64,000 nt of DNA from an uncultured Actinomycetota bacterium. Its GTDB lineage: Bacteria > Actinomycetota > UBA4738. The stretch's first letter is position 1. Every line of letters begins with the position of its first letter. The DNA lies in the NCBI GenBank assembly GCA_963781595.1, contig CAWAGG010000001.1, positions 22,775-86,774 on the forward strand. Reading direction: 5' to 3'. The notes under the pieces are model-generated. The model saw nothing but the letters and a program-made list of their open reading frames with translations. It had not been told where the DNA came from and searched no databases. Shown piece by piece: positions 2,510 to 27,051 of the stretch. The position numbers and the translations under genes are program-made.

Positions 2510-4941
2510 GCACGGCCGAGGCCGGCACGTTGGTCGAACCCCCGCGGACGGTCGTGGGCGCCGGCGTCGGAGTCTCCGTCCAGCGGGTCGACGCGCCGCC
2601 CAAGGTCCAGGGCGCCTTCGAGTACGCCAGCGACCTGCACGCCGACGGGATGCTGTTCGGCGCGACGGTGCGCTCGCCGAGGCCCAACGCGCGGATCGCC
2701 GCGATCGACCCTTCCGCTGCCCTCGCGTCGCCCGGCGTTCGGGCCGTCCTCACGGTCGAGGACGTGCCAGGCGTGCGGACGTTCGGCCTGGAGTTCGCCG
2801 ACCAACCGGCGCTCGCCGACGGCGTCGTCCGCCACGTCGGCGAGCCCGTCGCGATCCTCGCCGCCGAGACGCAGGAGCAGGCCCGGCGCGCCGCCGAGCT
2901 CGTGGCCGTCACGTACGAGGACCTCCCGGCGGTCACGGACATGGAACGAGCGCTCGATGAGGACGCGCCGAAGGTCCATCCGTTCGGCAACGTGCTGCGG
3001 CACGTGCACATCGAGCACGGCGACCCGGACGCGGCCGGTGACGTCGCCGTCGACGGGTACTACGAGACCGCGATGCAGGACAACGCGCCGCTCGGCCCGG
3101 AGGGAGCGCTGGCGATCCCCGCCCCCGACGGCGGCGTGGACCTGTTCGTCAACACGCAGTGGCTCCACGTCGACCGCCAGCAGATCGCGCCGTGCCTCGG
3201 GCTCCCGGAGTCGAAGGTCCGGATCACGCTCGCCGGGATGGGCGGCGCGTTCGGGGCGCGCGAGGACATCCACCTCCAGCTGCACGCGTGCATGATCGCG
3301 CTGCGGACCGGGCGGCCGGTGAAGATGGAGTTCGGACGGCGCGAGTCGTTCTTCGCGCACAAGAAGCGGCACCCGGCGCGCATGTGGATGCGACACACGG
3401 CCACGCGCGACGGCCGGCTCGTGAGCGTCACCGCGCGGATGCTGATCGACGGCGGCGCGTACGCGTCGTCGTCCCCGGCGGTGATCGCGAACGCGACCAC
3501 CTTCCTCACAGGCCCGTACCAGGTGCCGAACGCACGCCTGGACGGGACCGCGGTCTACACGAACAACCCGCCGTGCGGGGCGATGCGCGGGTTCGGCGCG
3601 CCGCAGACGACGTTCGCGGGCGAAGCCCAGATGGACCGGCTCGCCGCCGCGCTCGGGATCGACCCGGTCGAGCTGCGCCTGCGCAACGCGCTCGAGACCG
3701 GTTCCGTGCTCCCGACGGGTCAGGTGATCCGTGGGTCCGCGCCCGCGCGCGAGGTGATCGAACGCTGCGCCGCGATCCCACTCCCGTCTCCCGCCGATCC
3801 GTCCGCCGACCCCGTGACGCTGCCGGGCGGCGCCGGCAACGTCGGCCGCGGCGAGGGCGTGCGCCGCGGGGTCGGATTCGCCGTCGGCTACAAGAACCTC
3901 GCGTACAGCGAGGGGTTCGACGATGCGTCGGAGGTCCGTGTGACGCTCCGCGCGGGATCCGACGGGCCGGTCGCCTCGATCCACACCGCGGCTGCCGAGT
4001 GCGGCCAGGGGCTCGAGACCGTCCTGATCCAGATCGCCCGGACCGAGCTGGGCGTCGAGGACGTCACGGTCGAGACCGTCGACACGGAGCTCGGGTCCTC
4101 AGGCTCCTCCTCCGCGTCACGCCAGACGATGATGACGGGCGGCGCGACGCAGCTCGCGTCACGGAGCGTTCGTGATGCGCTGCTCGAACGCGTCCGCAGC
4201 CGCGGCGACGCAGCGGCGGCCGGCGAGCTCTCGGTCGCCGGCGGGTGGGTGCTCTCGGACGGGGTCCCGGTGGACCGCATCGACGCGTTCGTCCGGGAGC
4301 CGATCGCGCGGACCGAGACCTACCACCACCGGAGGACGACGGGCTTCGACGAACTGGGCCAGGGCGACATCCACGTGGCGTTCGCCTTCGCCGCGGAGCG
4401 CGCGGTCGTCGACGTCGACACCGAGCTGGGGCTCGTGAAGGTCGTGCAGATCGCCGCAGCCCAGGACGTCGGGCGCGCGCTGAACCCGGCCCAGGTGCAC
4501 GGCCAGATCGAAGGCGGGACGGCGATGGGCATGGGGCTCGCGCTCACCGAGGAGGTCCTGCTCGACGAGGGGCGGATCACGAACGCGTCGTTCACCGACT
4601 ACCTGATCCCCACGGCGCTCGACGCGACGCCCGTCGTGTCCGAGCTGGTCGAGGACCCCGAGCCGGGCGTCCCGTTCGGCGCGAAGGGCGTCGGCGAACC
4701 GGCCACGATCGTGGCCACGGCCGCGATCGTCGCGGCGCTCCGGGACGCGACCGGGTTGGACCTGAACCGGGCGCCGGTTCGTCCCGACGACCTCGTTGGC
4801 ATCCGACCACCGGCGCGCTCGGACGGGCCGGCCCCCATGCCGCCGCCCCCCTGGCAGAGGTCGGTCCCCGAGCTGCACGGGCTCGGCCTCGGACAACAGG
4901 AGCTGATGAAGGACCGCGAGACGGGAACGGAGGACACGTGA
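2506..4941 (+). CDS. Xanthine dehydrogenase molybdopterin-binding subunit (PucD-like)
   Basis: GGAFGARED, GAMRGFGAPQ, GQIEGG, GAKGVGE motifs; ATGA overlap with the deaminase. Confidence 0.93.
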   Translation: MSTAEAGTLVEPPRTVVGAGVGVSVQRVDAPPKVQGAFEYASDLHADGMLFGATVRSPRPNARIAAIDPSAALASPGVRAVLTVEDVPGVRTFGLEFADQPALADGVVRHVGEPVAILAAETQEQARRAAELVAVTYEDLPAVTDMERALDEDAPKVHPFGNVLRHVHIEHGDPDAAGDVAVDGYYETAMQDNAPLGPEGALAIPAPDGGVDLFVNTQWLHVDRQQIAPCLGLPESKVRITLAGMGGAFGAREDIHLQLHACMIALRTGRPVKMEFGRRESFFAHKKRHPARMWMRHTATRDGRLVSVTARMLIDGGAYASSSPAVIANATTFLTGPYQVPNARLDGTAVYTNNPPCGAMRGFGAPQTTFAGEAQMDRLAAALGIDPVELRLRNALETGSVLPTGQVIRGSAPAREVIERCAAIPLPSPADPSADPVTLPGGAGNVGRGEGVRRGVGFAVGYKNLAYSEGFDDASEVRVTLRAGSDGPVASIHTAAAECGQGLETVLIQIARTELGVEDVTVETVDTELGSSGSSSASRQTMMTGGATQLASRSVRDALLERVRSRGDAAAAGELSVAGGWVLSDGVPVDRIDAFVREPIARTETYHHRRTTGFDELGQGDIHVAFAFAAERAVVDVDTELGLVKVVQIAAAQDVGRALNPAQVHGQIEGGTAMGMGLALTEEVLLDEGRITNASFTDYLIPTALDATPVVSELVEDPEPGVPFGAKGVGEPATIVATAAIVAALRDATGLDLNRAPVRPDDLVGIRPPARSDGPAPMPPPPWQRSVPELHGLGLGQQELMKDRETGTEDT

Positions 4942-5930
4942 TGGACAGGGCTGCCCTGACCGGGCGCGACTACATCGAGACGATCGACTGGACCACCGAC
5001 GAGCTGGACGAGGTGATCGAAGTCTCCCGCGAACTGAAGGCGAGGTTCAAGGCGGGCGAGCCGCACCGGCTGCTCCCCGATAAGACGATCTACCTGCTGT
5101 TCCTGGACAAGTCGACCCGCACGCGGAACGCGTTCGAGACCGGGATCACCCAGCTCGGCGGCCACGGCATCTTCCTGGACGCGGACAAGACCCAGATCGC
5201 CCACGGCGAGAGCCCGAAGGACATGGGGATCATCCTGTCGCGGTACGGGCACGGGCTGGCGATCCGCCACGACCTGGTGCCGTACGAGGGGAACGCGTGG
5301 ATGCGCGAGGTCGCGCGCTGGGCCGACATCCCCGTGATCAACATGCAGTGCGACATCGACCACCCGACGCAGACGATCGCGGACCTGATGACGCTGCGCG
5401 AACACCGCGGCGAGGACCTCCGCGGCCTGAAGGTCGCGGTCTCATGGGCGTTCGCGCCGTCGTACGCGCGGCCGCTCTCGGTCCCGCAGGGCTTGGTGAC
5501 CCTGCTGCCGCGGTACGGCATCGACGTGACGCTCGCGCACCCGCCGGGGTGGGAGCTGATGCCGGAATCCCTGGAGAAGGCGGCCAAGGCGAGCGAGGAG
5601 GGTGGCGGGTCGCTGTCGTTCACGAACTCGATGGAGGACGCGTTCTCCGGCGCCGACGTCGTGTACCCGAAGTCCTGGGGCCGCCTCGACGCGTTCAGCG
5701 ACGAGGCCGCCGCGGGCGCGATCGAGTACGTGGACTGGATCTGCGACGCGCCGAAGATGGAGCTGACGAAGCCGGATTCGCTGTACATGCACTGCCTGCC
5801 CGCCGACCGTGGCAAGGAGGTCACCGACGAGGTGATCGACGGCCCGCACTCGGTGGTCTACGACGAGGCCGAGAACCGGATGCACACGGCGAAGGCGCTC
5901 ATGGCGCTGACCATGGGCGGGTACGCCTGA
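4941..5930 (+). CDS. Carbamoyltransferase, YgeW-like (OTCase superfamily)
   Basis: STRT, HPTQ, HCLP motifs; SWAFAPSYARPLSVPQG loop resembles YgeW rather than ArgF; TGATG overlap. Confidence 0.8.
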   Translation: MDRAALTGRDYIETIDWTTDELDEVIEVSRELKARFKAGEPHRLLPDKTIYLLFLDKSTRTRNAFETGITQLGGHGIFLDADKTQIAHGESPKDMGIILSRYGHGLAIRHDLVPYEGNAWMREVARWADIPVINMQCDIDHPTQTIADLMTLREHRGEDLRGLKVAVSWAFAPSYARPLSVPQGLVTLLPRYGIDVTLAHPPGWELMPESLEKAAKASEEGGGSLSFTNSMEDAFSGADVVYPKSWGRLDAFSDEAAAGAIEYVDWICDAPKMELTKPDSLYMHCLPADRGKEVTDEVIDGPHSVVYDEAENRMHTAKALMALTMGGYA

Positions 5931-5940
5931 GTCGCGCGGC

Positions 5941-7341
5941 GTGGTCGAGCGGACGCTGATCCGCGGCGGGACGCTGATCGACGGCGACGGTGTCCGCCGC
6001 GGCGACGTGCTCATCGAGGGCGAACGGATCGCGGCCACCGGCGACGGCCTGACCGCGAGCGACGCAGAGGTCGTCGACGCGTCCGGCGCGTACGTGATTC
6101 CCGGCGCGGTCGACGTGCATACGCACTTCGACCTGCCGGTCGGGGCCGTTCGCTCCGCCGACGACTTCGGGAGCGGCACCCTGGCCGCCGCGTGCGGGGG
6201 AACGACGTGCGTGATCGACTTCGCGGGCGCCGGGCGGGAGTCGCCGGCGGAGGCCCTGGAGGTCTGGCACGCGAAGGCCGACGGCCGGGCCGTGGCCGAC
6301 TACGGGTTCCACCTCACGGTGACGTCGGTGCCCGATGACCCGACCGAGGCGCGGGCGCTGTTCGCGTGGTTCGTCTCCGAGGGTGTCACGAGCGTGAAGC
6401 TCTACATGGCGTATCCCGAGCGGCTCATGGTCGACGACGCCACCCTGGCGCGAGCGCTCGCAGCCGGCCGCGACACGGGCGTCCGCGTGTGCGTCCACGC
6501 GGAGGACGGCTCCCAGATCGAGCACCTGACCGCCGACGCGCTCAGCGAGGGACCGGGCGGCCCGTGGACGAATCCGCTGGTTCGACCGCCGAGCGCGGAG
6601 GCCGAAGCGATCGGGCGAGCGGCGCGACTCGCCGCCGACGCAGGCACCTCCGTCTACGTCGTGCACCTGTCGAGCGCCGACGGCCTCGACGCGATCCGAG
6701 CCGCACGGGCGGCGGGCGCGGATGTCCTGGCGGAGACGTGTCCCCACTACGTGTTCCTGACCGACGCGAAGCTTCACGGATCTTCGGAGGAGTCGGTCGA
6801 CTTCGTCTGCCAGCCGCCGATCCGGACCGACGCCGATCGAGACGCGCTCTGGGCGGCGCTCGCCGACGGAGCGATCCAGGTCGTCTCCACCGACCACTGC
6901 CCGTTCACGAAGGCGGACCGGCGACGCGGTGTCGGTGGCGCGGGATGGCAGCGGTTCACCGAGATACCCGGTGGGCTCCCCGGCGTGGAGACGCGGCTGT
7001 CCCTGATCCACACGGGCGTGGTCGAAGGCCGCCTGACCCTCGACCGATGGATCGACGCCTGCGCCGTCGCGCCCGCCCGCCTGTTCGGCCTGGGCGACCG
7101 GAAGGGATCGCTGGCGCCGGGATCCGATGCGGACGTCGTCGTCTTCGACCCGTCAGCGACGAGGCGGTTGGACGCGGCGAGCCTGCACTCCAGATCGGAC
7201 CACAGTCCCTACGAGGGGATGGAGGTCACGGGCTGGGCGGCGTGGACCTTCTCGCGCGGTCGCGCGGTCGCGAAGGACGGCGAACCGTTCGACGCCGAAC
7301 CCGGCTGGGGACGGTTCGTCAGCCGGCGCCCCGTGTCGTGA
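5941..7341 (+). CDS. Dihydropyrimidinase / D-hydantoinase (HyuA/HydA-like)
   Basis: DVHTH, KLYMAY, VHAED, ETCPHY, STDHCPF, GLPGVETR. Confidence 0.9.
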   Translation: MVERTLIRGGTLIDGDGVRRGDVLIEGERIAATGDGLTASDAEVVDASGAYVIPGAVDVHTHFDLPVGAVRSADDFGSGTLAAACGGTTCVIDFAGAGRESPAEALEVWHAKADGRAVADYGFHLTVTSVPDDPTEARALFAWFVSEGVTSVKLYMAYPERLMVDDATLARALAAGRDTGVRVCVHAEDGSQIEHLTADALSEGPGGPWTNPLVRPPSAEAEAIGRAARLAADAGTSVYVVHLSSADGLDAIRAARAAGADVLAETCPHYVFLTDAKLHGSSEESVDFVCQPPIRTDADRDALWAALADGAIQVVSTDHCPFTKADRRRGVGGAGWQRFTEIPGGLPGVETRLSLIHTGVVEGRLTLDRWIDACAVAPARLFGLGDRKGSLAPGSDADVVVFDPSATRRLDAASLHSRSDHSPYEGMEVTGWAAWTFSRGRAVAKDGEPFDAEPGWGRFVSRRPVS

Positions 7342-8230
7342 CCTCGGCCTCGCGCCGGAGCACCTCGTTGAACGACGCGATCGCGACCTCGATCTGATCC
7401 GTCGCCGGGGGCTTCGTCGTGATCTTCTGCAGCCAGAGCCCCGGGGCCATCAGCGCCCGCATCACCCAGGACCGCTCGTACTTCGCGCCGAGGCGCAGCA
7501 TCTCGTAGGACACGCCAGCGATGATCGGGATCGTCACGACGCGCACCGTGATCCCCCACAGCAGGCCGCGGGCGGGGAACAGCGCGTAGATCAGCACGGT
7601 CAGGATCATCACGATCAGCAGGAAGTTCGTCCCGCAACGGACGTGCAGCGTCGAGAACCGGTCGACGGACGCGGGCTCGAGCGGGGCGTCGTGCTCGTAG
7701 GCCGCGATCGTCTTGTGCTCCGCGCCGTGGTACTCGAAGACGCGCCTGACTTCCTTGAGCCGCCCGATCAGCGCGAGGTACCCGACGAACAGCGCGATCC
7801 GCCCGATCCCCTCCAGCAGGTTGAGCGCGACGCTGGACGTCACCTGATGCTTCAGGAACCGGAACCCGACGAACGGCCCGACGACGAAGATCGCGATGAA
7901 CACGACGAACGCGATCGACATCGTGAAGGCCATCTGCCCGGTCGAGAGGCGCTGGTCATCCTCCATCGATTCGTTCGTCGCGATCACCAGCGCGCGCGTG
8001 CCGATCGACAGTGCCTGTCCCAGCGCGATCACGCCACGCAGGCCGGGCTTGGCGAAGATCGGGTGCCGCTTCGCGACCGAATGTATCTCGTGCGACTCGA
8101 CGTGGACACCCTGGTCGGGACGACGGACCGCGATGGCCCAGACGTCGCGCCCGCGCATCATCACGCCCTCGGGGACCGCCTGCCCGCCGTAGTAGTGCTG
8201 CTTCAGCGGAGGCGTCGGATGGTCAGCCAA
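7319..8230 (-). CDS. DUF1385 (YqhQ-like) membrane protein
   Basis: GGQAVPEGVMMR, FEYHGAEHK, HVRCGTNF, GLWLQKITT; follows rpmE; TTG start inferred. Confidence 0.9.
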   Translation of the reverse strand: MADHPTPPLKQHYYGGQAVPEGVMMRGRDVWAIAVRRPDQGVHVESHEIHSVAKRHPIFAKPGLRGVIALGQALSIGTRALVIATNESMEDDQRLSTGQMAFTMSIAFVVFIAIFVVGPFVGFRFLKHQVTSSVALNLLEGIGRIALFVGYLALIGRLKEVRRVFEYHGAEHKTIAAYEHDAPLEPASVDRFSTLHVRCGTNFLLIVMILTVLIYALFPARGLLWGITVRVVTIPIIAGVSYEMLRLGAKYERSWVMRALMAPGLWLQKITTKPPATDQIEVAIASFNEVLRREAEVTTRGAG

Positions 8231-8241
8231 ACCGTCGAGCC

Positions 8242-8454
8242 CTACGCCTGCTCGGTGGTCTTCCCGTACCGGCGCTGGAAGCGCTCGACGCGGCCGCCCG
8301 TGTCCACCAGCTTCTGCCTGCCCGTGTAGAACGGGTGGCACGCCGAACACAGCTCGAGCCGGATCTCAGAGACGGTCGAGCGCGTCTGGAACGTGTTGCC
8401 GCACGAACACGTGACGGTCGCCGTCGCATAGTCGGGGTGGATGCTCTGCTTCAT
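8242..8454 (-). CDS. rpmE: 50S ribosomal protein L31 (zinc-binding type)
   Basis: MKQSIHPDY...CSCG...[10 protein letters not shown]...DTGGRVERF. Confidence 0.97.
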
Positions 8455-8504
8455 GTGATCTCTTCCCTTCGGGTCTTCGTTCGGATCCAACGATCGATGA
8501 CGGA

Positions 8505-8771
8505 TCAAGCGTACGAGAGGCCGTAGTCGTCCATCAGCCCCTCGACGAACCGGTGGAACGCGAGATGGTCGCTCCGGAATTCCCGTTCCTCGCCGTCCCT
8601 GGCCGCCGTCACGACGTCGAACGACGTTCCGGTCGCGTCGCGCTCTTCGCGGATCGCCGTCGGCGTCCAACCGCCATCGATCGCTTCCTGCAGCTCAGCC
8701 ATCACGGGATCGTCGCCCCATCCGGCCACTCGTCGCCCCTCCTCGTTCGCTTCCCCGTCTCTCGCGTCCAC
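8505..8771 (-). CDS. Small hypothetical protein between rho and rpmE
   Basis: Co-oriented ORF filling the gap, starting 10 nt after the rho stop; protein-like composition. Confidence 0.6.
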
Positions 8772-8781
8772 CGCCGCGGGA

Positions 8782-10590
8782 TCAGTCGCCCGCGGGCGCC
8801 TTCGAGATCTCCTTCAGGAACTGCTCGTTCGACTTCGTCTGGCGGATCTTGTCGACCAGCAGCTCGAGCGCGGCGCCAGAGTCGAGCGCGTGCAGGACGC
8901 GGCGCAGCCGCCAGACCAGCACGAGCTCATCGTTCGACATCAGGCGCTCCTCCTTGCGGGTGCCGGAGGCCTCGATGTTGATCGCCGGGAAGATCCGCTT
9001 CTCGGACAGCTGCCGGTCGAGCCGGATCTCCCAGTTCCCGGTGCCCTTGAACTCCTCGAAGATCACCTCGTCCATGCGTGAGCCGGTCTCGACCAGCGCG
9101 CTCGCGATGATCGTGAGCGAGCCGCCCTCCTCGAGGTTCCGCGCTGCGCCGAAGAATCGCTTCGGCGGGTAGAGCGCGGTCGAGTCGACACCGCCTGACA
9201 GGATCCGCCCGGATGCCGGCGCGGACAGGTTGTACGCGCGGGCGAGTCGGGTGACCGAGTCCAGCAGGATCACGACGTCGCGGCCCTGTTCGACCAGGCG
9301 CTTCGCCCGGTCCAGGACCAGCTCGGTGACCTGCGTGTGCTGGTCGGCCGGCTTGTCGAACGTCGAGTACACGACCTCGCTCGCCGGGACCGTCCGCTGC
9401 CAGTCCGTGACCTCCTCCGGCCGCTCGTCGACCAGGAGGATGATCACATGGGTGGACGGATCGGCCTCGAGGATCCCGCCGGCGATCTGCTTCAGCACGG
9501 TCGTCTTGCCCGCCTTCGGCGGCGAGACGACCATCCCGCGCTGGCCCTTCCCGACGGGCGCCACGAGGTCGATGATCCGCTCCGCGATCCCTGTCGGCGA
9601 GTGCTCGAGCCGGAACCGCTCCTCGGGGAACAGCGGCGTCAGCTTGTCGAACTCCGGCCGCAGCCGCGCCGTGTCTGCGTCGACGCCGTTCACGGCGTCG
9701 ATCCGGAGCAGCGCGTAGTACTTCTCGCTGTCGCGCGGCTGGCGTATCGGTCCTTCGACCTGGTCGCCCCTGCGCAGGGCGAACCGCCGGATCTGGCTGA
9801 GCGAGACGTACACGTCGTCCGGACCGGGCAGGTAGCCGTTCGTCCGGAGGAACCCGTAGCCCTCGGGCAGCGTGTCCAGGATGCCGGTGCGGACCGGCGC
9901 GGTCGCGATCTCTTCCTCACGGGCCTCCTGCTCGCGGACGCGGCGCTCCTCGCGCATCCGGCGCCGCTCCTCGCGGGTGGGACGACGGTCCCGGGAGCGA
10001 TCGCCCGGCTGGCCGCCGCCCTGGCCCTGCGGCCCGCGGTCGCCACGGTCACCCCGATCGCTCCGGTCGCCGGCCCGCTGGTCGGTCCGCTGGTCACCGC
10101 GGCCGCGGTCGGCCCGCTGTCCGTCATCCTGTTCGGCGCGACGACCACCCTCGGCCTGGTCGCCCTCCTCGGGGCGCCCGGCGTCGGCGCGGCCGTCATC
10201 GGGAGCCGCATCGGTCGTGGCGACCTCGGCCTCCGCGGCCGGACCCGCGTCCGTTCCCGCGCTGGTCTCCTGCGGTTCCGCATCCGTACCCGCAGCCGCT
10301 TCGGTCGTGTCCACGCGGCCGTTGCCGGAGGTCTCGGTCGCCACCCCCGCGGCCGGTTGGGTCCACGTGCCCGCGTCGGCAGCCTCGCCGGCGTCGGTCG
10401 CGACCGTCCCTCCGGCCCCGTGATCCGCGGCGTCGTCGCCCGATGACTTCGCGACGATGGCCGCGATCAGGTCGCCCTTCCGCAGCCGCTGGGAGCCCGA
10501 GACCCCCATGGACTGCGCGAGCCTCTGGAGCTCGGGCAACAGCTTGCCCTCCAGCTCCGAGCGGTCGATGGTCGGGGATTCCAAGGTCAT
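8782..10590 (-). CDS. rho: Transcription termination factor Rho with long acidic/Arg-rich N-terminal insertion
   Basis: [42 protein letters not shown]. Confidence 0.98.
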
Positions 10591-11258
10591 GCTCCTTCCT
10601 GCTTCTTCAGTTCCTCCTGCAGCGCCTTCCAGTCGCTCAGGAACCTCTCCAGTCCGATGTCCGTCAGCGGGTGCTTGACCAGCTGGGCGAACACCGCGTA
10701 CGGCATCGTCGCCACGTCGGCGCCCACCTGCGCCGCCTGCACCACGTGCATCGGGTGGCGCAGCGACGCCGCGAGCACGTTCGTCTCGTAGCCCTGCGCC
10801 GCGTAGATCTCGCACATCTCCGCCAGGAGGCCCATCCCGTCCGACCCGACGTCGTCCAGGCGGCCGAGGAACGGCGAGACGTAGGTCGCACCGATCTCTG
10901 CCGCGAGGATCGCCTGTGCGGACGAGAACACGAGCGTCACGTTCACGGGGATGCCGCGGTCGACGAGGCGCTTACCGGCCGCGAGGCCGTCGGGCGTCAT
11001 CGCGACCTTCACGACGACGTTGTCCGCGATCGCGGCGAGCTTCAGGCCCTGCTCGAAGATCCCATCGGCATCTTCGAGCGTCGTCTCAAGCGAAACCGGG
11101 CCCGGTGCGACCTCGTTCACGACCTCCTTCATCTGGAGCTCGACGTCGTTGTGCTCCTTCGCCAGCAGCGTCGGGTTCGTCGTCAGGCCGCCGAGCACCC
11201 CCCACGTCTTGATCGCGCGGATCTCGGCCAGGTTCGCGGTGTCGAGGAACAACTTCAT
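10587..11258 (-). CDS. tal: Transaldolase (small TalC/Fsa type)
   Basis: [45 protein letters not shown]. Confidence 0.92.
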
Positions 11259-12247
11259 CGGCGGGCCTCCTCAAGCTCGTTCGTCCCGGGCGTCGGCGCC
11301 GGGTCGTGGTCCCCGCCCGCGACCGCGCCGCCGCGTCGCTCGCGGAGGTGGCCGGTCGCCCGGTCGAGGACCAGGTCGATCAGGTCGGAGAGCATCTGGT
11401 CCAGGCTGTAGTTCGCGATCACGGGAACGCCGTGCGTGAGCGCCTGACTCTTGATGTAGCGCTGGACGCGGCGGATGTTGTCGAACCCGCGGACGTAGCG
11501 CACGGATGGCCGGCTGGACCGGTCGTCCTGCGCACGCGCCGCGAAGTGCCCGCGGTGGAGCTCCTCGTCCTCCACCGTGACGATGACCGGGATCGCGAGG
11601 ATCCGTTCGTCGAACGTGCCTGCGTCGATGAACCCGGGCACCACGTGCACGCCCTCGATGATCGCGCTCGTGCCCTCGGTCGCCGCTCGCTCGAGGAGCG
11701 CGTTCACGCCGACCGAGACGGCGGCGGTCTGCTCGCGGAACCCGACGATCACGGTGTCCTGGGACCGGCCCGGCGGCTCGCGAAGTGCCGCGTCGGCCTG
11801 GAACGACGAGGTGTACAGCGTCGGCATCAGCTCCTGCGTCAGCGTCGCGCGCATCACCTCGCGGATCGCGTCGGTCGCGACGACGCGCACGATGTTCAGC
11901 CGAACCGCCAGCCGCGTCGCGATCGTGGACTTCCCGACGCCGGTCGCCCCGCCGATCAGCAGCACGATCGGGACGTCCAGTCCCCTGACCTCTTCCCACC
12001 GGCGGAAGTTCTTCGCGTAGCGGTCGCCGGCGAGGTCGAGCAGTACCTGCTCGGTCAGGTCGTTCAGCCCCTCGCGCGAGATCGCGTCGACGCTCATGGC
12101 GACGAGCCGCTCCTCGACCTCCTCGGCGATCTGGTAGGCGCGCAGCGGCGAGAGCCCGGTCACCATCAGATCGGACGCGCGCAGCCCCTTCGAGTACGGG
12201 AGCCCTGGCTCCCGGTCGGATGCCACGATCACCTTGTGGTCCTTCAC
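11255..12247 (-). CDS. 2-phosphoglycerate kinase (ATP-cone + P-loop)
   Basis: N-terminal LPYSKG ATP-cone, IGGATGVGKST, TDAIREVMR, IIEGVHVVPG; GTG overlaps the cpgS stop. Confidence 0.85.
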   Translation of the reverse strand: MKDHKVIVASDREPGLPYSKGLRASDLMVTGLSPLRAYQIAEEVEERLVAMSVDAISREGLNDLTEQVLLDLAGDRYAKNFRRWEEVRGLDVPIVLLIGGATGVGKSTIATRLAVRLNIVRVVATDAIREVMRATLTQELMPTLYTSSFQADAALREPPGRSQDTVIVGFREQTAAVSVGVNALLERAATEGTSAIIEGVHVVPGFIDAGTFDERILAIPVIVTVEDEELHRGHFAARAQDDRSSRPSVRYVRGFDNIRRVQRYIKSQALTHGVPVIANYSLDQMLSDLIDLVLDRATGHLRERRGGAVAGGDHDPAPTPGTNELEEARR

Positions 12248-13626
12248 GTTCGTCGTTCCCCTCGGTCGCCCACGCGCGCCACCTCGGCGCCGCGGGCCAC
12301 GGCCCGTTCGACCCCCTGCCGGACGATCCCGCTCAACAGCTCCTCCAGGTCGCCGTCCCCACCGACCCCGTTCGGCCGGTTGTCGACGAACATCACCTCG
12401 GCGCCGCGCTCGAGCGCGCGCCTGGCGCCCACGTCCACCGCGGCCGCCTTGAGCTCGGTCGCCAGGACGTCGAACCCGGGAGCCCCGCTCAGGTCCTCTT
12501 CGAGCCCCGCCCGGTCGGCGAGTCGCGATGAGGTCCGAACGATCCGGCACCCCGCGGTACGTTCGATGTGCTCGGCGAGCCGGACGGCCACTTCCCCTCG
12601 CGCCGTGGTAGCGAAGAACACGTCCTTGTCCTTCACGTCGCCCAGTACGACCGGCAGGAGCTCCGCGACCGCTACCGGCGCATCCGGCGCAAGCCGACGT
12701 ACGTGGGAGGTGAGGGTGGAAAGATCGTCCGGCCCGGCGTCCGGGCCACTTCCAAGGATAAAGACCACGAGGTCCGATAGCAACATCCTGAGCGGACCGC
12801 CGTAGCCGACCAGATGCGCGGGGTCGATCGACGCCGGCGCCACGAGCACGCCCGCATCCCAGGGCACCGTGGGCAACGACGCGCCGCTCCCCTCGAGGAT
12901 CACGAGCCCGGCGCCGATCACGTCCGTCGCGATCGCCGCGGCGTCCGCCACGTTCGTCGCGAAGGGCCGGCCGCCGATGCCGCCGCCGACCCGGCGCGCG
13001 CCGACCGTGGGCACCTGGGCCACGAGCGCGTCCTCGAGGTAGTCCGACGCGGCATGCTCCCCGCCGGCGGCGCGCGCCACGAGCGCCCCGACCGTGACGT
13101 CACCTGAGTCCGTGGCCGCCGGCGCGCCCGGTCCCCCGCGGCCCATCGCCACGATGGCCGGCCGTTCGCCCGCCGAGGCGGCCAGCCGGCCGACGTGTGC
13201 GGACACGGCGGTCTTCCCGACGCGCTTGCCGGTCCCGATCACGGCGAGCGTCGCAACCGCGAGCGGATCCTCCGTGATCGGCGGCTCGAACCGGAAGTCG
13301 GGCCCCACGTATGGCAGGCCCCGCGAGAGCGCCACCGCGGCCAGCTGCATCCGTCGTTCGTCGTGGACGACCGGCTCGTCGGAGAGATCCAGCACCGCGT
13401 CGGGCGCGAGCTCCGCGATCGCGGCGGCGAGCGCGCGCATCGGGTCGGCCTCGGCGCGGCGGACCGGGACGTCGCCGAGGTCCAACCCGTGGTCGCGGTC
13501 GAGCTTCTCCGCCCCGCCGACCATCAGCGCAGCGAGGATCTCGTAGCCCGCGTCGCGCGCCACCTCGAGCCCCCAGCGCGTGACCGGTGGATAGTGCTCG
13601 CCGTCGACGAGCGCGATGACCTTCAT
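12244..13626 (-). CDS. cpgS: Cyclic 2,3-diphosphoglycerate synthetase
   Basis: Family signatures ALVDGEHYPPV, DLSDEP, GTGKRVGKTAVS, AMGRGGP, HAASDYLEDA, LEGSGA, TELKAAAVD; RBS GGAAGGA. Confidence 0.9.
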   Translation of the reverse strand: MKVIALVDGEHYPPVTRWGLEVARDAGYEILAALMVGGAEKLDRDHGLDLGDVPVRRAEADPMRALAAAIAELAPDAVLDLSDEPVVHDERRMQLAAVALSRGLPYVGPDFRFEPPITEDPLAVATLAVIGTGKRVGKTAVSAHVGRLAASAGERPAIVAMGRGGPGAPAATDSGDVTVGALVARAAGGEHAASDYLEDALVAQVPTVGARRVGGGIGGRPFATNVADAAAIATDVIGAGLVILEGSGASLPTVPWDAGVLVAPASIDPAHLVGYGGPLRMLLSDLVVFILGSGPDAGPDDLSTLTSHVRRLAPDAPVAVAELLPVVLGDVKDKDVFFATTARGEVAVRLAEHIERTAGCRIVRTSSRLADRAGLEEDLSGAPGFDVLATELKAAAVDVGARRALERGAEVMFVDNRPNGVGGDGDLEELLSGIVRQGVERAVARGAEVARVGDRGERRT

Positions 13627-13639
13627 CGGTTCCTTCCGA

Positions 13640-13792
13640 GCTCCGTCCGGCAGCCCGGCGTCGGCGATCCTGACGGAGCACTCGTGACGCTGCCTGCCAG
13701 GGATCGAGACGCGGGACCGGGGATCTTCGGGACGTTGAGCGGAACCCCTGAGGGGTTCGGGATCGATCCCTTCCTGCCTCCATAACGTTCTA
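13640..13792 (-). promoter_or_regulatory. Promoter and structured 5' leader of the cpgS operon
   Basis: TGnTAGAAC -10-like (13787-13792); palindromes GGGATCGATCCC and GAACCCCTGAGGGGTTC; GCTCCGTC/GACGGAGC stem abutting the RBS. Confidence 0.4.
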
Positions 13793-13870
13793 CCACGGCC
13801 GGTTATGTCCGCGGCGGCGCGTCGGGTTCTGCAACGATGTCTGCGTGACCGTCGCGACCCCCTCCGGCGC

Positions 13871-15040
13871 ATGGATCTCCTCGACGTCCTGATCCTGGTC
13901 TGGGTTGCGCTCGCCGCCGTAGCAGGCTACCGGCGCGGCGCCGCCCTCCAGCTGACCGAGTACGCCGGCCTCCTGGTCGGACTGCTCGTCGGAGCCGTCG
14001 TCGCGCCCCTGATCGCGGGGTTCGCCTCGTCGCCGATCGTCCAGGCCGTGATCGCGTTGGTCGTGCTCCTGAGCCTGGCCGCGGCCGGCGAGGGCGTGGG
14101 CTGGATGGTCGGCCGGCGCGCCTGGAGGTTCACGCGGACAGGCATGCTTCGCGGGGTCGACGCGATCGGCGGCTCGTTCGTCAGCATCGTCGCGGTCCTG
14201 CTGGTCACGTGGTTCATCGCGTACAGCATGGCGGGCGGACCGTTCCCGGCGCTCTCCCGCCAGATCCGATCCTCGGCGGTCGTCGGCACGATGAACGACG
14301 TCATGCCGCGGCCGCCCTCGCTGCTGTCGGACGTGCGGCAGTTCCTCGATCGGTTCGGGTTTCCGGAGGTCTTCGCCGACCTGCCGCCGGTCCCAGCCGG
14401 TCCCGTCCAGGTGCCGTCGGACGCGACCGTTCGCGCGATCGCGTCGGCCGCGTCCCCGTCCGTGGTCAAGGTGGTGGGTGAGGCGTGCGGCGAGATCCTC
14501 TCCGGCACCGGGTTCGTGGCGGCGCCGCACTACGTCGTCACGAACGCACACGTGGTCGCCGGCGAGGCGTCACCGCGCGTCGACCTGGGGGTGCTCCGAT
14601 ACGCGGCCGACCCAGTGCTGTTCGATCCGAAGCTCGACGTCGCCGTGCTCTTCGTGCCGGCGCTCGAGGCACCGATGCTCCGGTTCGATCCGCAGGAGGT
14701 CGATCGCGGGGCGCGCGGCGCGGCGCTCGGGCACCCCGGGGGCGGCCCGCTGGCCGCGATCCCCGCCGGCGTGCGGCGGGCGATGGTCGCGCTGGGCCGC
14801 GACATCTACGGGCGGTCGGTCGTCGATCGGCAGATCTACGAGCTGCAGGCCGGCGTCCAGCCCGGCGACTCCGGGGGCCCGTTCGTGCTGCGGGACGGCC
14901 GGGTCGGCGGCGTCGTGTTCGCGGCGTCCACCACCGATCCGAACGTCGGCTACGCGCTCACGTCCCGGGCCGTGCTCCCGTTGCTGGCGCAGGCCGTTGG
15001 GCGAACCGCCCGCGTCGGGACGGGTCCCTGCGCCCGGTGA
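13871..15040 (+). CDS. MarP family membrane serine protease (CvpA + trypsin domain)
   Basis: Several N-terminal TM segments; TNAHVV, DVAVL, PGDSGGP triad motifs. Confidence 0.92.
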   Translation: MDLLDVLILVWVALAAVAGYRRGAALQLTEYAGLLVGLLVGAVVAPLIAGFASSPIVQAVIALVVLLSLAAAGEGVGWMVGRRAWRFTRTGMLRGVDAIGGSFVSIVAVLLVTWFIAYSMAGGPFPALSRQIRSSAVVGTMNDVMPRPPSLLSDVRQFLDRFGFPEVFADLPPVPAGPVQVPSDATVRAIASAASPSVVKVVGEACGEILSGTGFVAAPHYVVTNAHVVAGEASPRVDLGVLRYAADPVLFDPKLDVAVLFVPALEAPMLRFDPQEVDRGARGAALGHPGGGPLAAIPAGVRRAMVALGRDIYGRSVVDRQIYELQAGVQPGDSGGPFVLRDGRVGGVVFAASTTDPNVGYALTSRAVLPLLAQAVGRTARVGTGPCAR

Positions 15041-22179: not shown

Positions 22180-23301
22180 TCAGGGAGCGAGCTCGCACTC
22201 CAGGAATCGCGCGAGTCGCCGCGACTCGGCCGCAAGCTGCCGGCCCGCCCAGGCGGGTAACGGATCGAACGGTTCGAGCTCGACCGTCAGGCGCCGGCCG
22301 CCGACCGTGTGGCGCCAGACGCCGACGACGCGGCCGTTCACCAGGATCACCGGCGAGACTCAGCCCTGCTGGCGGAAGACTCGCCCGACGCGCTGCGGAT
22401 CGATCATCGGCTCGCGGCGAGCCATGGCGATGACCCAGGGGTCGAACGCCGGGAGCAGCCGCGCCACGTTGCGCGGTCTCGCGGCGGCCAGCCCGGGCAG
22501 GTCCGCGGCGAGAGCCAACGTGGGCTGACCGTCACGGCCGCCGTCGACGTCGATCTGGACGACCTCGTCGCCCAACGCCTCCAGCATCGGGGCGATCCGC
22601 CGGCCCGACTTCGATTCCACCCACCAGTGCCCCAGGTCTCCCGGAGTGGCCGGGCCGTAGGCGTGGAGGAACCGACGGCCGACCTCGGCCTGGGCGTCCG
22701 CGGTCGCGGGCCGGTCGAGCGGGTGCCCGACCCAGCTCGCCGGAGAGGTGAACCGCACCTGCGTCCCCTCGCTCGGCGCGAAGCAGACGAGCCCCTCGAA
22801 GGTCGCGGCCTTCAGCGCCCACCCCCAGCTCGAGCGCAGCCACTCCGCGTGCTCCGGCGAACCTGTCAGCCGCCCGACCTCGTCGGCGAGCTCCTGCCGG
22901 GTCAGCTCCCGGCCGTCGAGCGCGCGGGCGACCGCTCCGGTGATCGCGTCGATGTCGGCGCGGTCGGCCGTTCCCCAGCCCCTCGGGAGCGTGCCGAAGG
23001 CGGCCAGCCACATGCCCAGCTCCGCGGCGGGGAGCAGGTGCAACGTGCCGCGCATCGCCCACATCTTGACCAGCGAACGGTGCGTCCACAGCGCCTCGCG
23101 AACGGCATCGCGCGGCAGGCCGTCGATGCGCGCCCACAGGCTCAGTTCGGCCGACGAGAGCACCTGCGCGTGGAGGCCGCCGATCTCCCCGGTGACCCGG
23201 ACCAAGTCGGCCGGCGCGGCGCGTTCGACCAGGTGATGGCGTTCCATCCGCCACGCCAGCGCCCCTCGCCAGGAGACGCGGACCCCGTCGCGCACCGGCA
23301 T
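22180..23301 (-). pseudogene. AlkZ-like (HTH_42) DNA glycosylase with in-frame TGA
   Basis: GLHAQ, WAMRGTLH, FLHAYGPAT, LLPAFD; TGA at 22360-22362 where the paralogue has Trp; frame continues VSPVILVNGRVVGVW to a stop at 22180. Confidence 0.8.
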
Positions 23302-23366
23302 CCCGTGCCTCCGAGCGCGCGGCGATGCGCGGCCTCGAGCCCCGCCTGGGGGAACGCGGCCCCGCA

Positions 23367-24398
23367 TCAACCCGCGAGGAACGCTTCCAGGCGTTCCGCT
23401 TCGTCCTGGAGCTCACCTCGGACCGAGCGCGGCAGCGGCGAGAACGGGTCGAGCACGACGCGGCGGTCCTCCGCGCGCCATGTGCCCGCCACCAGCCCGT
23501 CGACCAGGAACGTCTGCGCCACGTCGCCGTTCGTGCCGATGACTCGCTTCCGGTACTCCTCCGGGAGCACGCGTGTCCGGTCGGCGAACGCGAGCAGCAC
23601 GTTGTCCCACTTCGGCAGGAACCGGACCGGCACGGGCGTCTCGGCGTCCGGCCGCGGCGAGCCCGGGACGTCGAGCAGCTCGCGTCCCTGTTCGTCGCGG
23701 AACCGGATCAGCGGCTCGAGCCGATCGAGGGCCCGGCGGATCTCCGGCACGTGCATCATGCTCCATGCGACGATGTCGCGGCGTGACGCCGGTCCGAAGG
23801 CGGCCAGGTATCGACGCAGGATCTGCGCTCGCGCGTCCGTCGGGTCGTGTGCGTCCGGCTCCGGGATGGCGACGAATCGGCCCTCGGGACGCGCGCGCCA
23901 GAGCGCCGACTCGTGGTGGTGCAGGACGTGCGCGCGCACCCGCGCGCCGCGCCAGGCGAGGCGTGCCTCCCGACCCGTGAGCCCGTGCTCCCGCTCCAGA
24001 TAGGCGAGCGCTTCCTCGTGGGTGACGGGACCGGTCGCGGCGAAGGCTCGCACCGACGACGCGAGGCGCCGCGCGACGGCCGACTGGTCCGGGTAGTTCG
24101 TCTCGCTCAGCGCGGCCCTGAGCAGCGCGTAGTCGCGCCGCGTGACGAGGTGCAACGTCATCCGCATCACGGTCGCCTTCACGACGGAGGCCCCGGCGAG
24201 CTCGCGCTCGAGCGCCTCGCGCCGGAAGCTCGTCGTGCGCGTCCAGATGCCGACGTAGGGGGCCGGCGGCCACTGCGCCTGCATGCCGACGAGACGCTCG
24301 ATCACGGACGTCGGCGAGCGCCGCTTGCGTTCGAGCAGGAGCTGACGGGTCAGCGTCGCGCGGTTCAGCTCGCGCAGCGTGAGAACGCGCTCGGTCAC
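23367..24398 (-). CDS. AlkZ-like (HTH_42) DNA glycosylase
   Basis: LNRATLTRQLLL, GMQAQ, MRMTLH, YLAAFGPAS, FLPKWDN, LVDGLVAGTW. Confidence 0.88.
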   Translation of the reverse strand: MTERVLTLRELNRATLTRQLLLERKRRSPTSVIERLVGMQAQWPPAPYVGIWTRTTSFRREALERELAGASVVKATVMRMTLHLVTRRDYALLRAALSETNYPDQSAVARRLASSVRAFAATGPVTHEEALAYLEREHGLTGREARLAWRGARVRAHVLHHHESALWRARPEGRFVAIPEPDAHDPTDARAQILRRYLAAFGPASRRDIVAWSMMHVPEIRRALDRLEPLIRFRDEQGRELLDVPGSPRPDAETPVPVRFLPKWDNVLLAFADRTRVLPEEYRKRVIGTNGDVAQTFLVDGLVAGTWRAEDRRVVLDPFSPLPRSVRGELQDEAERLEAFLAG

Positions 24399-25929: not shown

Positions 25930-27051
25930 CTACGCGGAGCTGATCTCGACGGTCAGTTCGCGGTCGAGGATCGCCGAGAGGCGGGCCATCTCATCGTTCA
26001 GCGCTCTCTTCGGTACGGTGCCCGTCTCCGGGAACCACCCCACCCGGACGCGGTCGCCGTCCAGGTCCCAGGTGCCGCGGACGACACCGCCCGCCACCAC
26101 GACGGGCGAGATCCATCCGCTCTGCTTGCTCACCGTGGCCCGCCTCCCGGACGGCACGACGTTGCCGTCCCCCGTTCCGGGCCCCATGACGTACTGGTCG
26201 AAGCCGGGGAGCAGCCGCACCGCCCGCGTCGGGCGCGTCGAGGCCAACCCGTCCAGGTCCTCCGCGCGCACGAACGCGGGCTCACCGCCGACCTCCACCT
26301 CCGCCATCCGGTCGCCGAGAGCGTCGAACCAGGTTCGGAGCTGCCGCTTGCCGAACCACCCGCCCGCCAGCCACGTCCCGAACGCCTCGATCGTCGCCGG
26401 GCCGTACGCGCCGAAGTACGCGGCGATCGCCCTGGGCGCCGCCTCGTCGGGGTCCGGGACGCCGGCCCAGCGCGAGCTGGCTGCCTCCGGTCGCATGAAC
26501 GTGGCTCGCGACCCGCGGCTCGGTCCGAAGCAGATGTCCCCCTGCCACGCGAGCGGCTTCAGCAGCGTTCCCCAGCCCGACCGGAGGGCGTCGCCGACGT
26601 GTCCCAGCCCGCGACGTGCGGTCACGGCGGTCACGAGTTCGTCCCGGGTGAGGACCGTGCCGTCGAGCGCTTCGCGCGCCGCCTCGCGCAAGAGCCCGAT
26701 CTGCGACGGGCTCACGCCGAAGTACCGCTGCCAGCTTGGCCGTTCCCACGAACGTCCCGAGGCCATCAGCGAGAGGAAGTCCCCACCCTCCTCGGGCGTG
26801 AGCAGATGCAGCGTGCCCCGCATCGCCCAGGTCTTGACGAGGCGGCCCTGCGAGAGCGCTCGGCCCATATCGCCGGGCCGCGACGCCGCGCGGCGGACGC
26901 GGATCGCGAGTTCGGCGGACGATGCGACCTGCGCCTGCACGCCGCAGAGGCGTCTGACGACGCCGACCACGGGCTGCGTCCGGATCGGGTCGAGCAGGTG
27001 GCGCTGCATCCGCCACGCGAGCGCCTGCTCCCAGCTGATCTTCGCGACCAC
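25930..27051 (-). CDS. AlkZ-like (HTH_42) DNA glycosylase
   Basis: GVQAQ, TWAMRGTLH, YFGAYGPAT, LLPGFDQY, GWISPVVV. Confidence 0.88.
   Translation of the reverse strand: MVAKISWEQALAWRMQRHLLDPIRTQPVVGVVRRLCGVQAQVASSAELAIRVRRAASRPGDMGRALSQGRLVKTWAMRGTLHLLTPEEGGDFLSLMASGRSWERPSWQRYFGVSPSQIGLLREAAREALDGTVLTRDELVTAVTARRGLGHVGDALRSGWGTLLKPLAWQGDICFGPSRGSRATFMRPEAASSRWAGVPDPDEAAPRAIAAYFGAYGPATIEAFGTWLAGGWFGKRQLRTWFDALGDRMAEVEVGGEPAFVRAEDLDGLASTRPTRAVRLLPGFDQYVMGPGTGDGNVVPSGRRATVSKQSGWISPVVVAGGVVRGTWDLDGDRVRVGWFPETGTVPKRALNDEMARLSAILDRELTVEISSA

Follow-up and report, generated by a model that had tools for sequence, protein, structure and literature searches.

A cyclic 2,3-diphosphoglycerate synthetase homologue and a 2-phosphoglycerate kinase homologue upstream of tal and rho in an uncultured Actinomycetota bacterium

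The biosynthesis of cyclic 2,3-diphosphoglycerate (cDPG) has been described in the archaeon Methanothermus fervidus, where it involves two enzymes, a 2-phosphoglycerate kinase (2PGK) and a cDPG synthetase (cDPGS), the latter being represented in the Protein Data Bank (PDB) by entries 8ORK and 8ORU (PMC10690619). In the literature, cDPG is stated to occur only in hyperthermophilic methanogens and is treated as an extremolyte (PMC10690619, PMC12136491), storage and osmotic roles are described for it in methanogens in a review (PMC1224877), and the presence of 2PGK in mesophilic methanogens is taken, in a genome paper, to suggest another function (PMC2686161). Here, we describe homologues of both enzymes encoded by two adjacent genes, cpgS and 2PGK, in a 64,000-nucleotide (nt) stretch of DNA, hereafter the window, from an uncultured Actinomycetota bacterium (contig CAWAGG010000001.1). 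We consider it probable that the gene block headed by this pair is a single operon and that cpgS and 2PGK, at its head, are genuinely orthologous to the archaeal pathway genes, making cDPG from 2-phosphoglycerate (2PG). This reading joins observed homology, ligand residues, gene order and distribution to a product, a shared transcript and a physiological role that are predicted from them.

The bacterial genes belong to the same two enzyme families as those of the M. fervidus pathway. In the case of the synthetase, the likeness extends to an alignment over the full length, with the N-terminal domain responsible for the dimer and the substrate site, as well as to an identical Walker A motif (GTGKRxGKT) and identical ligand residues. 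In contrast to M. fervidus, the window host is a bacterium, and the record titles of its relatives name non-thermal habitats; its pair stands ahead of tal and rho in the gene order, the position of E305 is occupied by Ser, a phosphoesterase partner accompanies the pair in most of its relatives, and cDPG is a product predicted from its genes. A more distant relative is ArcE (TK2200) of Thermococcus kodakarensis, which interconverts arginine and citrulline with adenosine di- and triphosphate (ADP/ATP) and is found with arcB/arcC in some genomes, and whose phylogenetic tree was built with cDPGS homologues as the outgroup (PMC11032458). ArcE belongs, as a distant member, to the P-loop superfamily branch of the window cpgS product; however, compared with ArcE by description only, the window protein is close to cDPGS, keeps the ligands of 2,3-diphosphoglycerate (2,3-DPG) and travels with 2PGK. 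Bacterial cpgS and 2PGK genes are already annotated automatically in public databases, and the window pair is an ordinary representative of two known enzymes, unexpected in its host range and its operon.

Identity of the synthetase and the kinase

The identification of cpgS relies on a PDB sequence search and on the precomputed Pfam family of its protein, PF27272, because the copies of Pfam and NCBIfam that were searched, which did not hold the PF27272 model, gave no family match. In the PDB search (phmmer), residues 2–437 of the 460-residue product aligned with residues 5–450 of the M. fervidus cDPGS chain (8ORU/8ORK; E 4.2e-80; approximately 40% identity), a match that takes in the unique N-terminal domain of around 127 residues. 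The third match, 9SXB (436 residues, E 6.3e-73), bears the name of the same enzyme. These were the only three PDB matches and each of them is a cDPGS entry. The gene is present as a single copy in the genome of the window.

In the M. fervidus enzyme, which is active as a dimer, ten residues are assigned to the binding of 2,3-DPG, Mg or the nucleotide: E45 and K46 contact 2,3-DPG from the partner subunit, K145, R146, K149 and T150 in the Walker A motif or P-loop bind the substrate, the ATP phosphates and Mg, D208 is a Mg ligand, and T353, E404 and K406 are in contact with ATP (PMC10690619). The window protein retains all ten, as E40, K41, K134, R135, K138, T139, D195, T341, E391 and K393, four of them (K134, R135, K138 and T139) within its Walker A motif, GTGKRVGKT. 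Moreover, these positions are invariant across 85 aligned homologues (76 bacterial and 9 archaeal), apart from one bacterial row gapped at E40/K41. Eleven positions in total were mapped by alignment, P335 of PMC10690619 not being placed, and ten of the eleven are retained; the remaining one, E305, is replaced by Ser, in a column that is variable even in archaea (D in three, E in six). An earlier reading of the window made by a model from its letters (hereafter the sequence-only reading) had named this gene a cDPG synthetase, and the full-length match to the M. fervidus enzyme together with the retained ligand residues bears that name out. The window cpgS product can, thus, be regarded as a full-length homologue of the characterised cDPGS, and it is predicted to catalyse the ATP-dependent cyclisation of 2,3-DPG to cDPG.

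The naming of the second gene as 2PGK is supported at the level of the family. Its product matches the NCBIfam model NF003259 from end to end (294.9 bits, E 7e-88, model positions 4–297 of 306), whereas the score lies under the curated cut-off of that model. The protein contains the Walker A motif GGATGVGKST, it matches AAA_33 with 29.2 bits (cut-off 27), and its residues 32–88 give a weak match to the ATP-cone domain (19.4 bits), which is below the cut-off. No relative was found in the PDB at E <= 0.01. The kinase is filed here as a 2PGK-family homologue (COG2074), whose function is suggested by its context.

Gene order, distribution and inheritance

The gene order around cpgS was compared in 91 loci besides that of the window, which were searched with the window proteins and comprise 82 non-archaeal loci, approximately 53 of them from the window's order-like group, and 9 archaeal loci. 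The 2PGK gene is located directly downstream of cpgS in 76 of the 77 eligible non-archaeal loci, the exception being an Anaerolineae locus, and a search of that Anaerolineae genome, which carries cpgS, found 2PGK absent. A tal gene then follows in 54/62 eligible loci, rho is found downstream in 49/53 and rpmE in 44/47, and a gene for a DUF1385 protein follows rpmE in 31 of the 45 loci with at least 1000 nt beyond rpmE. The loci without tal include those of the Acidimicrobiia type, in which rho stands directly after 2PGK. The gene order is also kept in Aquicultor-like, Coriobacteriia-like and Acidimicrobiia-like groups, and the arrangement cpgS-2PGK-tal-rho-rpmE is, thus, maintained both in relatives of the window and in distant Actinomycetota classes. 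In a sample of the phylum, 2PGK adjoins cpgS in 120 of the 122 genomes for which both places are given among the 150 listed, and the genes of the two non-adjacent cases are at contig ends; in five further families compared by coordinates, rho is just downstream in all five and tal in four. In archaea, by contrast with the adjacent and overlapping genes of the window, none of the nine loci has a linked 2PGK, and the four methanogen genomes with cpgS that were checked all carry a 2PGK, 38–39% identical to that of the window, far from cpgS.

Conservation extends to the other side of the pair. A calcineurin-like metallophosphoesterase (PF00149) is encoded directly upstream of cpgS on the same strand in 60/75 eligible non-archaeal loci, and at the operon head in 49 of the 53 order-like loci. 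It is missing from this place in the window (13627–13870), in a relative of the same genus (L003/L014) and in two further loci (L010 and L025), an absence that the sequence-only reading had no means of seeing. When the enzyme of another locus (L022, 5156–5941) was used as the query, no match to the operon-type metallophosphoesterase was found at E <= 0.001 in the window's genome, which is 85% complete and contains five other Metallophos-family matches elsewhere. No curated equivalog was matched by the operon enzyme, the weak matches of which are to families such as cyclic-nucleotide phosphodiesterases. This enzyme is a candidate hydrolase of cDPG or 2,3-DPG, and its loss makes the genus of the window a derived operon variant. 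In the four Acidimicrobiia-type loci (L069, L072, L074 and L077, three titled Acidimicrobiia and one Actinomycetota bacterium), the gene directly upstream of cpgS encodes an apgM-type phosphoglycerate mutase in every case. This linkage is independent support for a route leading from 3-phosphoglycerate through 2PG and 2,3-DPG to cDPG. The conserved neighbours of cpgS are, in sum, 2PGK, tal, rho and either the phosphoesterase or apgM.

Within the order of the window, cpgS was found in 39 of 41 sampled genomes, that of the window counted, and the two genomes without it are 73% and 61% complete. Among 401 sampled Actinomycetota genomes, cpgS was found in 227 and 2PGK in 228 (E <= 1e-20), these counts referring to the genomes searched and not to shares of the phylum. 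Co-occurrence of the two genes is all-or-none by family among the listed families: both are present throughout f9 (26/26), f19 (31/31), f31 (16/16) and f16 (10/10), as well as in f21 (cpgS 28/28, 2PGK 27/28), and neither is present in f14 (0/21), f15 (0/19), f20 (0/13) or f27 (0/10). The tallies for the order and the phylum include genomes flagged as unpublished (G017, G018, G030, G037, G041, G057, G085, G117, G153, G180, G206, G258, G270, G299, G349 and G421), which alone carry no conclusion.

In a wider protein collection, at least 7983 of the 8000 candidates scored are cpgS relatives, and clustering at 50% yields 180 clusters (E <= 1e-30). Many of these relatives, for which the organism is given as Actinomycetota bacterium, already bear one of the names cyclic 2,3-diphosphoglycerate synthetase and 2,3-diphosphoglycerate synthetase at JGI and NCBI. 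Among ten cluster representatives that were looked up, one stands for a cluster of four Streptomyces strains and another for a cluster of Cloacimonadota metagenome-assembled genomes (MAGs). The four Streptomyces strains are cultured and carry a 48%-identical cpgS, the NCBI name of which differs between strains, being either 2,3-diphosphoglycerate synthetase or hypothetical protein; the tree neighbour of this cluster, locus L084, has an adjacent 2PGK without tal or rho.

A pattern scan for cpgS, built from 14 closer sequences and run on one genome per species, gave at least 600 stretches, of which at least 516 were confirmed. The best 80 of these stretches include bacterial MAGs titled Actinomycetota, Acidimicrobiia, Coriobacteriia, Candidatus Aquicultor, Anaerolineae and Eubacteriales, together with archaeal records of Methanobacteriaceae, Methanosphaera stadtmanae and Methanopyri, and pasture, soil, groundwater and palsa are named in the titles of related records among them. 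Methanosphaera stadtmanae is a mesophilic gut methanogen. Two of its MAGs (L080 and L086) carry cpgS, and the genome of L080 also has an unlinked 2PGK; therefore, the genes are not confined to thermophiles even among archaea.

The inheritance of the pair was addressed with a quick maximum likelihood tree built from 55 cpgS sequences. In it, the nine named archaeal rows group as a single clade (97 in the Shimodaira–Hasegawa-like approximate likelihood ratio test, SH-aLRT), separate from the bacterial homologues, while the window's order-like group and the Acidimicrobiia-like sequences form one clade each (100 in both cases) and the bacterial sequences are not nested among those of methanogens. 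The tree is unrooted and has some representatives on long branches, and the direction of any ancient transfer between the domains is not fixed by it. For the C-terminal domain of Rho, a FastTree on the same loci requires 4 label changes for the four groups defined by cpgS (minimum 3; mean of shuffles 12.6), and it is broadly congruent with the cpgS clades. Besides, the guanine plus cytosine (GC) content of the operon block (0.67–0.73) is like that of its flanks, the whole window ranging from 0.67 to 0.75. Because of the distribution, the synteny, the congruence of the Rho tree and the flank-like GC content, a recent import is rejected, in agreement with the sequence-only reading, which had preferred a core function to a recent accessory acquisition. 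The model search, synteny survey and phylogeny that this reading had put forward all came out in its favour; the growth-coupled production of cDPG that it suggested is a prediction. The pair appears to be old and vertically inherited in Actinomycetota.

The apparent operon and its surroundings

Seven genes in a row, from cpgS to that of the DUF1385 protein, occupy positions 7319–13626 of the minus strand (Table 1) and constitute one apparent operon, which is presumably co-transcribed. The GTG start of 2PGK overlaps the TGA stop of cpgS (GTGA, 12247–12244), the start of tal overlaps the stop of 2PGK (ATGA, 11258–11255) and that of rho overlaps the stop of tal (ATGA, 10590–10587). These three consecutive 4-nt junctions read exactly as the sequence-only reading had described them, and the small open reading frame (ORF), rpmE and DUF1385 gene that it had placed downstream of rho were all located. 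Overlaps of this kind are frequent in the operons of high-GC bacteria, and those of the window, although real, are statistically unremarkable. A purine-rich, Shine-Dalgarno-like stretch is found 6–12 nt 5' of the starts of 2PGK, tal, rho and cpgS, the last of which starts with the ATG at 13626, just preceded by GGAAGGA. No terminator-like site was detected between the operon genes, the sole site in 7000–14200 lying inside cpgS (1.6 expected in shuffles), and no sigma-70-like promoter was found in a site scan of the same region. Given its conserved position upstream of tal and rho, the pair would be expressed constitutively, its transcription and translation probably being coupled to those of housekeeping genes.

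Table 1. Genes of the cpgS–DUF1385 block and the spacer preceding it, in window coordinates (aa, amino acids)
Feature	Position	Strand	Basis or remark
cpgS, cDPG synthetase homologue, 460 aa	12244-13626	minus	PDB sequence search, conserved ligand residues, PF27272 label
2-phosphoglycerate kinase (2PGK) homologue, 330 aa, GTG start	11255-12247	minus	NF003259
tal, short-type transaldolase / fructose-6-phosphate aldolase family, 223 aa	10587-11258	minus	PF00923 185.4 bits; TIGR00875 262.4 bits (cut-off 245.95)
rho, transcription termination factor, 602 aa	8782-10590	minus	TIGR00767 613.1 bits (cut-off 509.45)
Small conserved ORF, ~74 aa, no family	8505 to ~8729	minus	Candidate starts GTG 8729, ATG 8702, GTG 8771
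rpmE, ribosomal protein L31, 70 aa	8242-8454	minus	PF01197 114.6 bits; NF000612 114.1 bits
DUF1385 membrane protein	7319 to ~8230	minus	PF07136 255.7 bits; start TTG 8230 or ATG 8161
Intergenic spacer, ~245 nt, cpgS to divergent MarP-family protease gene	13627-13870		Presumed promoter region

The products of tal, rho, rpmE and the DUF1385 gene all score above curated thresholds. In Rho, matches were obtained to all three domains (Rho_N, Rho_RNA_bind and ATPase), and a long low-complexity insert rich in Asp, Gly, Arg and Ala (residues ~50–230) separates the N-terminal domain from the RNA-binding domain. The small ORF had no family match in the library searches; it was matched by tblastn between rho and rpmE in 13 of the 50 loci with both genes (61–80% identity), and all 13 belong to the window's own order-like set.

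Gene maps of Gram-positive bacteria, which we take to read fbaA-ywjH(tal)-murAB-glpX-rho-rpmE in Bacillus subtilis and, presumably, thrB-rho-rpmE-prfA in Mycobacterium, resemble the window in that rpmE follows rho and that central-carbon genes, a short-type transaldolase among them, precede it. The window differs from these maps in the presence of cpgS and 2PGK upstream of, and coupled to, tal and rho.

Beyond the spacer that precedes cpgS, the divergent protease gene belongs to the MarP family (NF033740, 360.8 bits). On the opposite side, a carbamoyltransferase gene (4245–5930, plus strand), the ORF of which as listed has around 240 surplus N-terminal residues, and an amidohydrolase gene (5941–7341, plus strand) both point towards the end of the rho operon, and together they resemble a pyrB-pyrC pair. 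Elsewhere in the window, three paralogous genes for AlkZ-like DNA glycosylases are clustered on the minus strand (22360–23370, 23367–24398 and 25930–27051).

Predicted route, alternatives and meaning

The genome of the window, which is 85% complete, encodes a cofactor-independent apgM-type mutase (363 bits, cut-off 320) and an enolase. The match to the cofactor-dependent mutase model TIGR01258 reaches only 23.6 bits (cut-off 81.7), and no model match to a bacterial-type iPGM was found in this genome. Therefore, 2PG is available to the cell and 2,3-bisphosphoglycerate is not needed as a mutase cofactor. In the proposed route, the apgM-type mutase and enolase would supply 2PG, 2PGK would phosphorylate it to 2,3-DPG, and cDPGS would close an intramolecular pyrophosphate ring at the expense of ATP to form cDPG, a closure for which a two-step SN2 mechanism has been proposed in the archaeal enzyme (PMC10690619). 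Both enzymes would be translated from one transcript with tal, rho and rpmE. Heat protection is a less likely function of the product than that of a phosphate, carbon or energy store, or of an anionic solute.

Several points weigh against a bacterial cDPG operon. Firstly, the kinase lies below curated cut-offs (294.9 bits versus 343 for NF003259, and 287.3 versus 603 for NF008994), and its family includes other kinases, with mevalonate-3-phosphate 5-kinase being a weaker match of the window protein. Secondly, the case for co-transcription of cpgS through rho is made from gene arrangement, and the surveyed loci are mostly kin, hence not independent. Thirdly, two enzyme papers restrict cDPG to hyperthermophilic methanogens (PMC10690619, PMC12136491), and a full-text literature search found no paper reporting cDPG or its enzymes in a bacterium, as the sequence-only reading had supposed in calling the pathway uncharacterised there. 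Moreover, ArcE, on a distant branch of cDPGS, has another reaction, and it occurs widely among bacteria, Actinomycetota being no exception (PMC11032458). Finally, without the operon phosphoesterase, the pathway may run differently in the genus of the window.

Four alternatives to cDPG synthesis by an old bacterial operon have been considered. It is unlikely, yet deserves to be weighed first, that the pair handles 2,3-DPG without accumulating cDPG, in a side-cycle of lower glycolysis where 2,3-DPG itself would be functional as a regulator or phosphate donor, or where the synthetase would operate mainly in the reverse, ATP-yielding direction. The M. fervidus enzyme has been reported as reversible, with a storage role being discussed (PMC1224877). 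Besides, the operon partners are central-carbon genes (tal in the window and apgM in Acidimicrobiia-type loci), and pasture, soil, groundwater and palsa are habitats in which a heat protectant would make little sense. Nevertheless, the residues for ring closure are all invariant, which speaks for selection on the cyclisation step, and the phosphoesterase partner of most relatives would suit a stable end product that is turned over.

We regard it as improbable that the synthetase homologue acts on another substrate, as an ArcE-like or other ADP-forming ligase, and that the kinase is another COG2074-type kinase. Apart from the divergent activity of ArcE and the kinase scores under the curated cut-offs, this possibility could appeal to the carbamoyltransferase-family gene located approximately 6 kb away on the opposite strand; however, that gene is followed by the amidohydrolase in the pyrB-pyrC-like arrangement noted above. 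The identity of approximately 40% to cDPGS (E 4e-80), the PDB matches consisting solely of three cDPGS entries, the conservation of the 2,3-DPG-binding residues E45, K46, K145 and R146, and the conserved linkage to 2PGK, and to a phosphoglycerate mutase in Acidimicrobiia-type loci, all speak for the 2,3-DPG substrate.

There is very little to commend the idea that 2PGK supplies 2,3-bisphosphoglycerate as the primer of a cofactor-dependent phosphoglycerate mutase. Mesophilic methanogens without cDPGS have 2PGK homologues for which another function has been suggested (PMC2686161), but the strictly linked cpgS would be left unexplained. This candidate was rejected with apgM as the only mutase found in the 85%-complete genome (TIGR01258 at 23.6 bits and no iPGM).

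A recent arrival of the pair from methanogenic archaea, as accessory genes, is the least credible of all; it could invoke the first description of the pathway in archaea and the patchy occurrence of the genes outside Actinomycetota (single Anaerolineae and Cloacimonadota examples, with a single Streptomyces example likewise listed) but is contradicted by the 39/41 genomes of the order and the 227/401 of the phylum sample, the same gene order and the flank-like GC content, as well as by the archaeal sequences forming one clade apart from the bacterial groups and by the unlinked state of the archaeal pair.

Returning to the preferred reading of an operon that makes cDPG, this compound may, judging from the genes, be an old bacterial metabolite that is not exclusive to hot archaea. 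More tentatively, and in our judgement a little short of an even chance, cDPG would be an ancestral and constitutive metabolite of many Actinomycetota, including soil, groundwater and anaerobic lineages of non-hot environments, instead of an archaeal speciality for heat protection. The pair would then have stood upstream of rho since before the divergence of the classes, with cDPG synthesis scaling with the transcription and translation machinery, and cDPG would act as a buffer of phosphate, carbon and energy or as an anionic counter-ion. In addition, the phosphoesterase would be the long-sought cDPG hydrolase, and those lineages that lost it would handle the cDPG pool differently.

The orthologous pair is a conserved, operon-linked feature in more than half of the sampled Actinomycetota genomes, and the widely repeated statement that cDPG is exclusive to hyperthermophilic methanogens thereby becomes directly testable. 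If the pathway operates as predicted, the role of cDPG would have to be rethought, with storage or buffering favoured over heat protection, and the conserved phosphoesterase would be a concrete candidate for the cDPG-degrading enzyme. Moreover, mesophilic and possibly culturable producers, together with their enzymes, would become available for the biotechnological production of cDPG.

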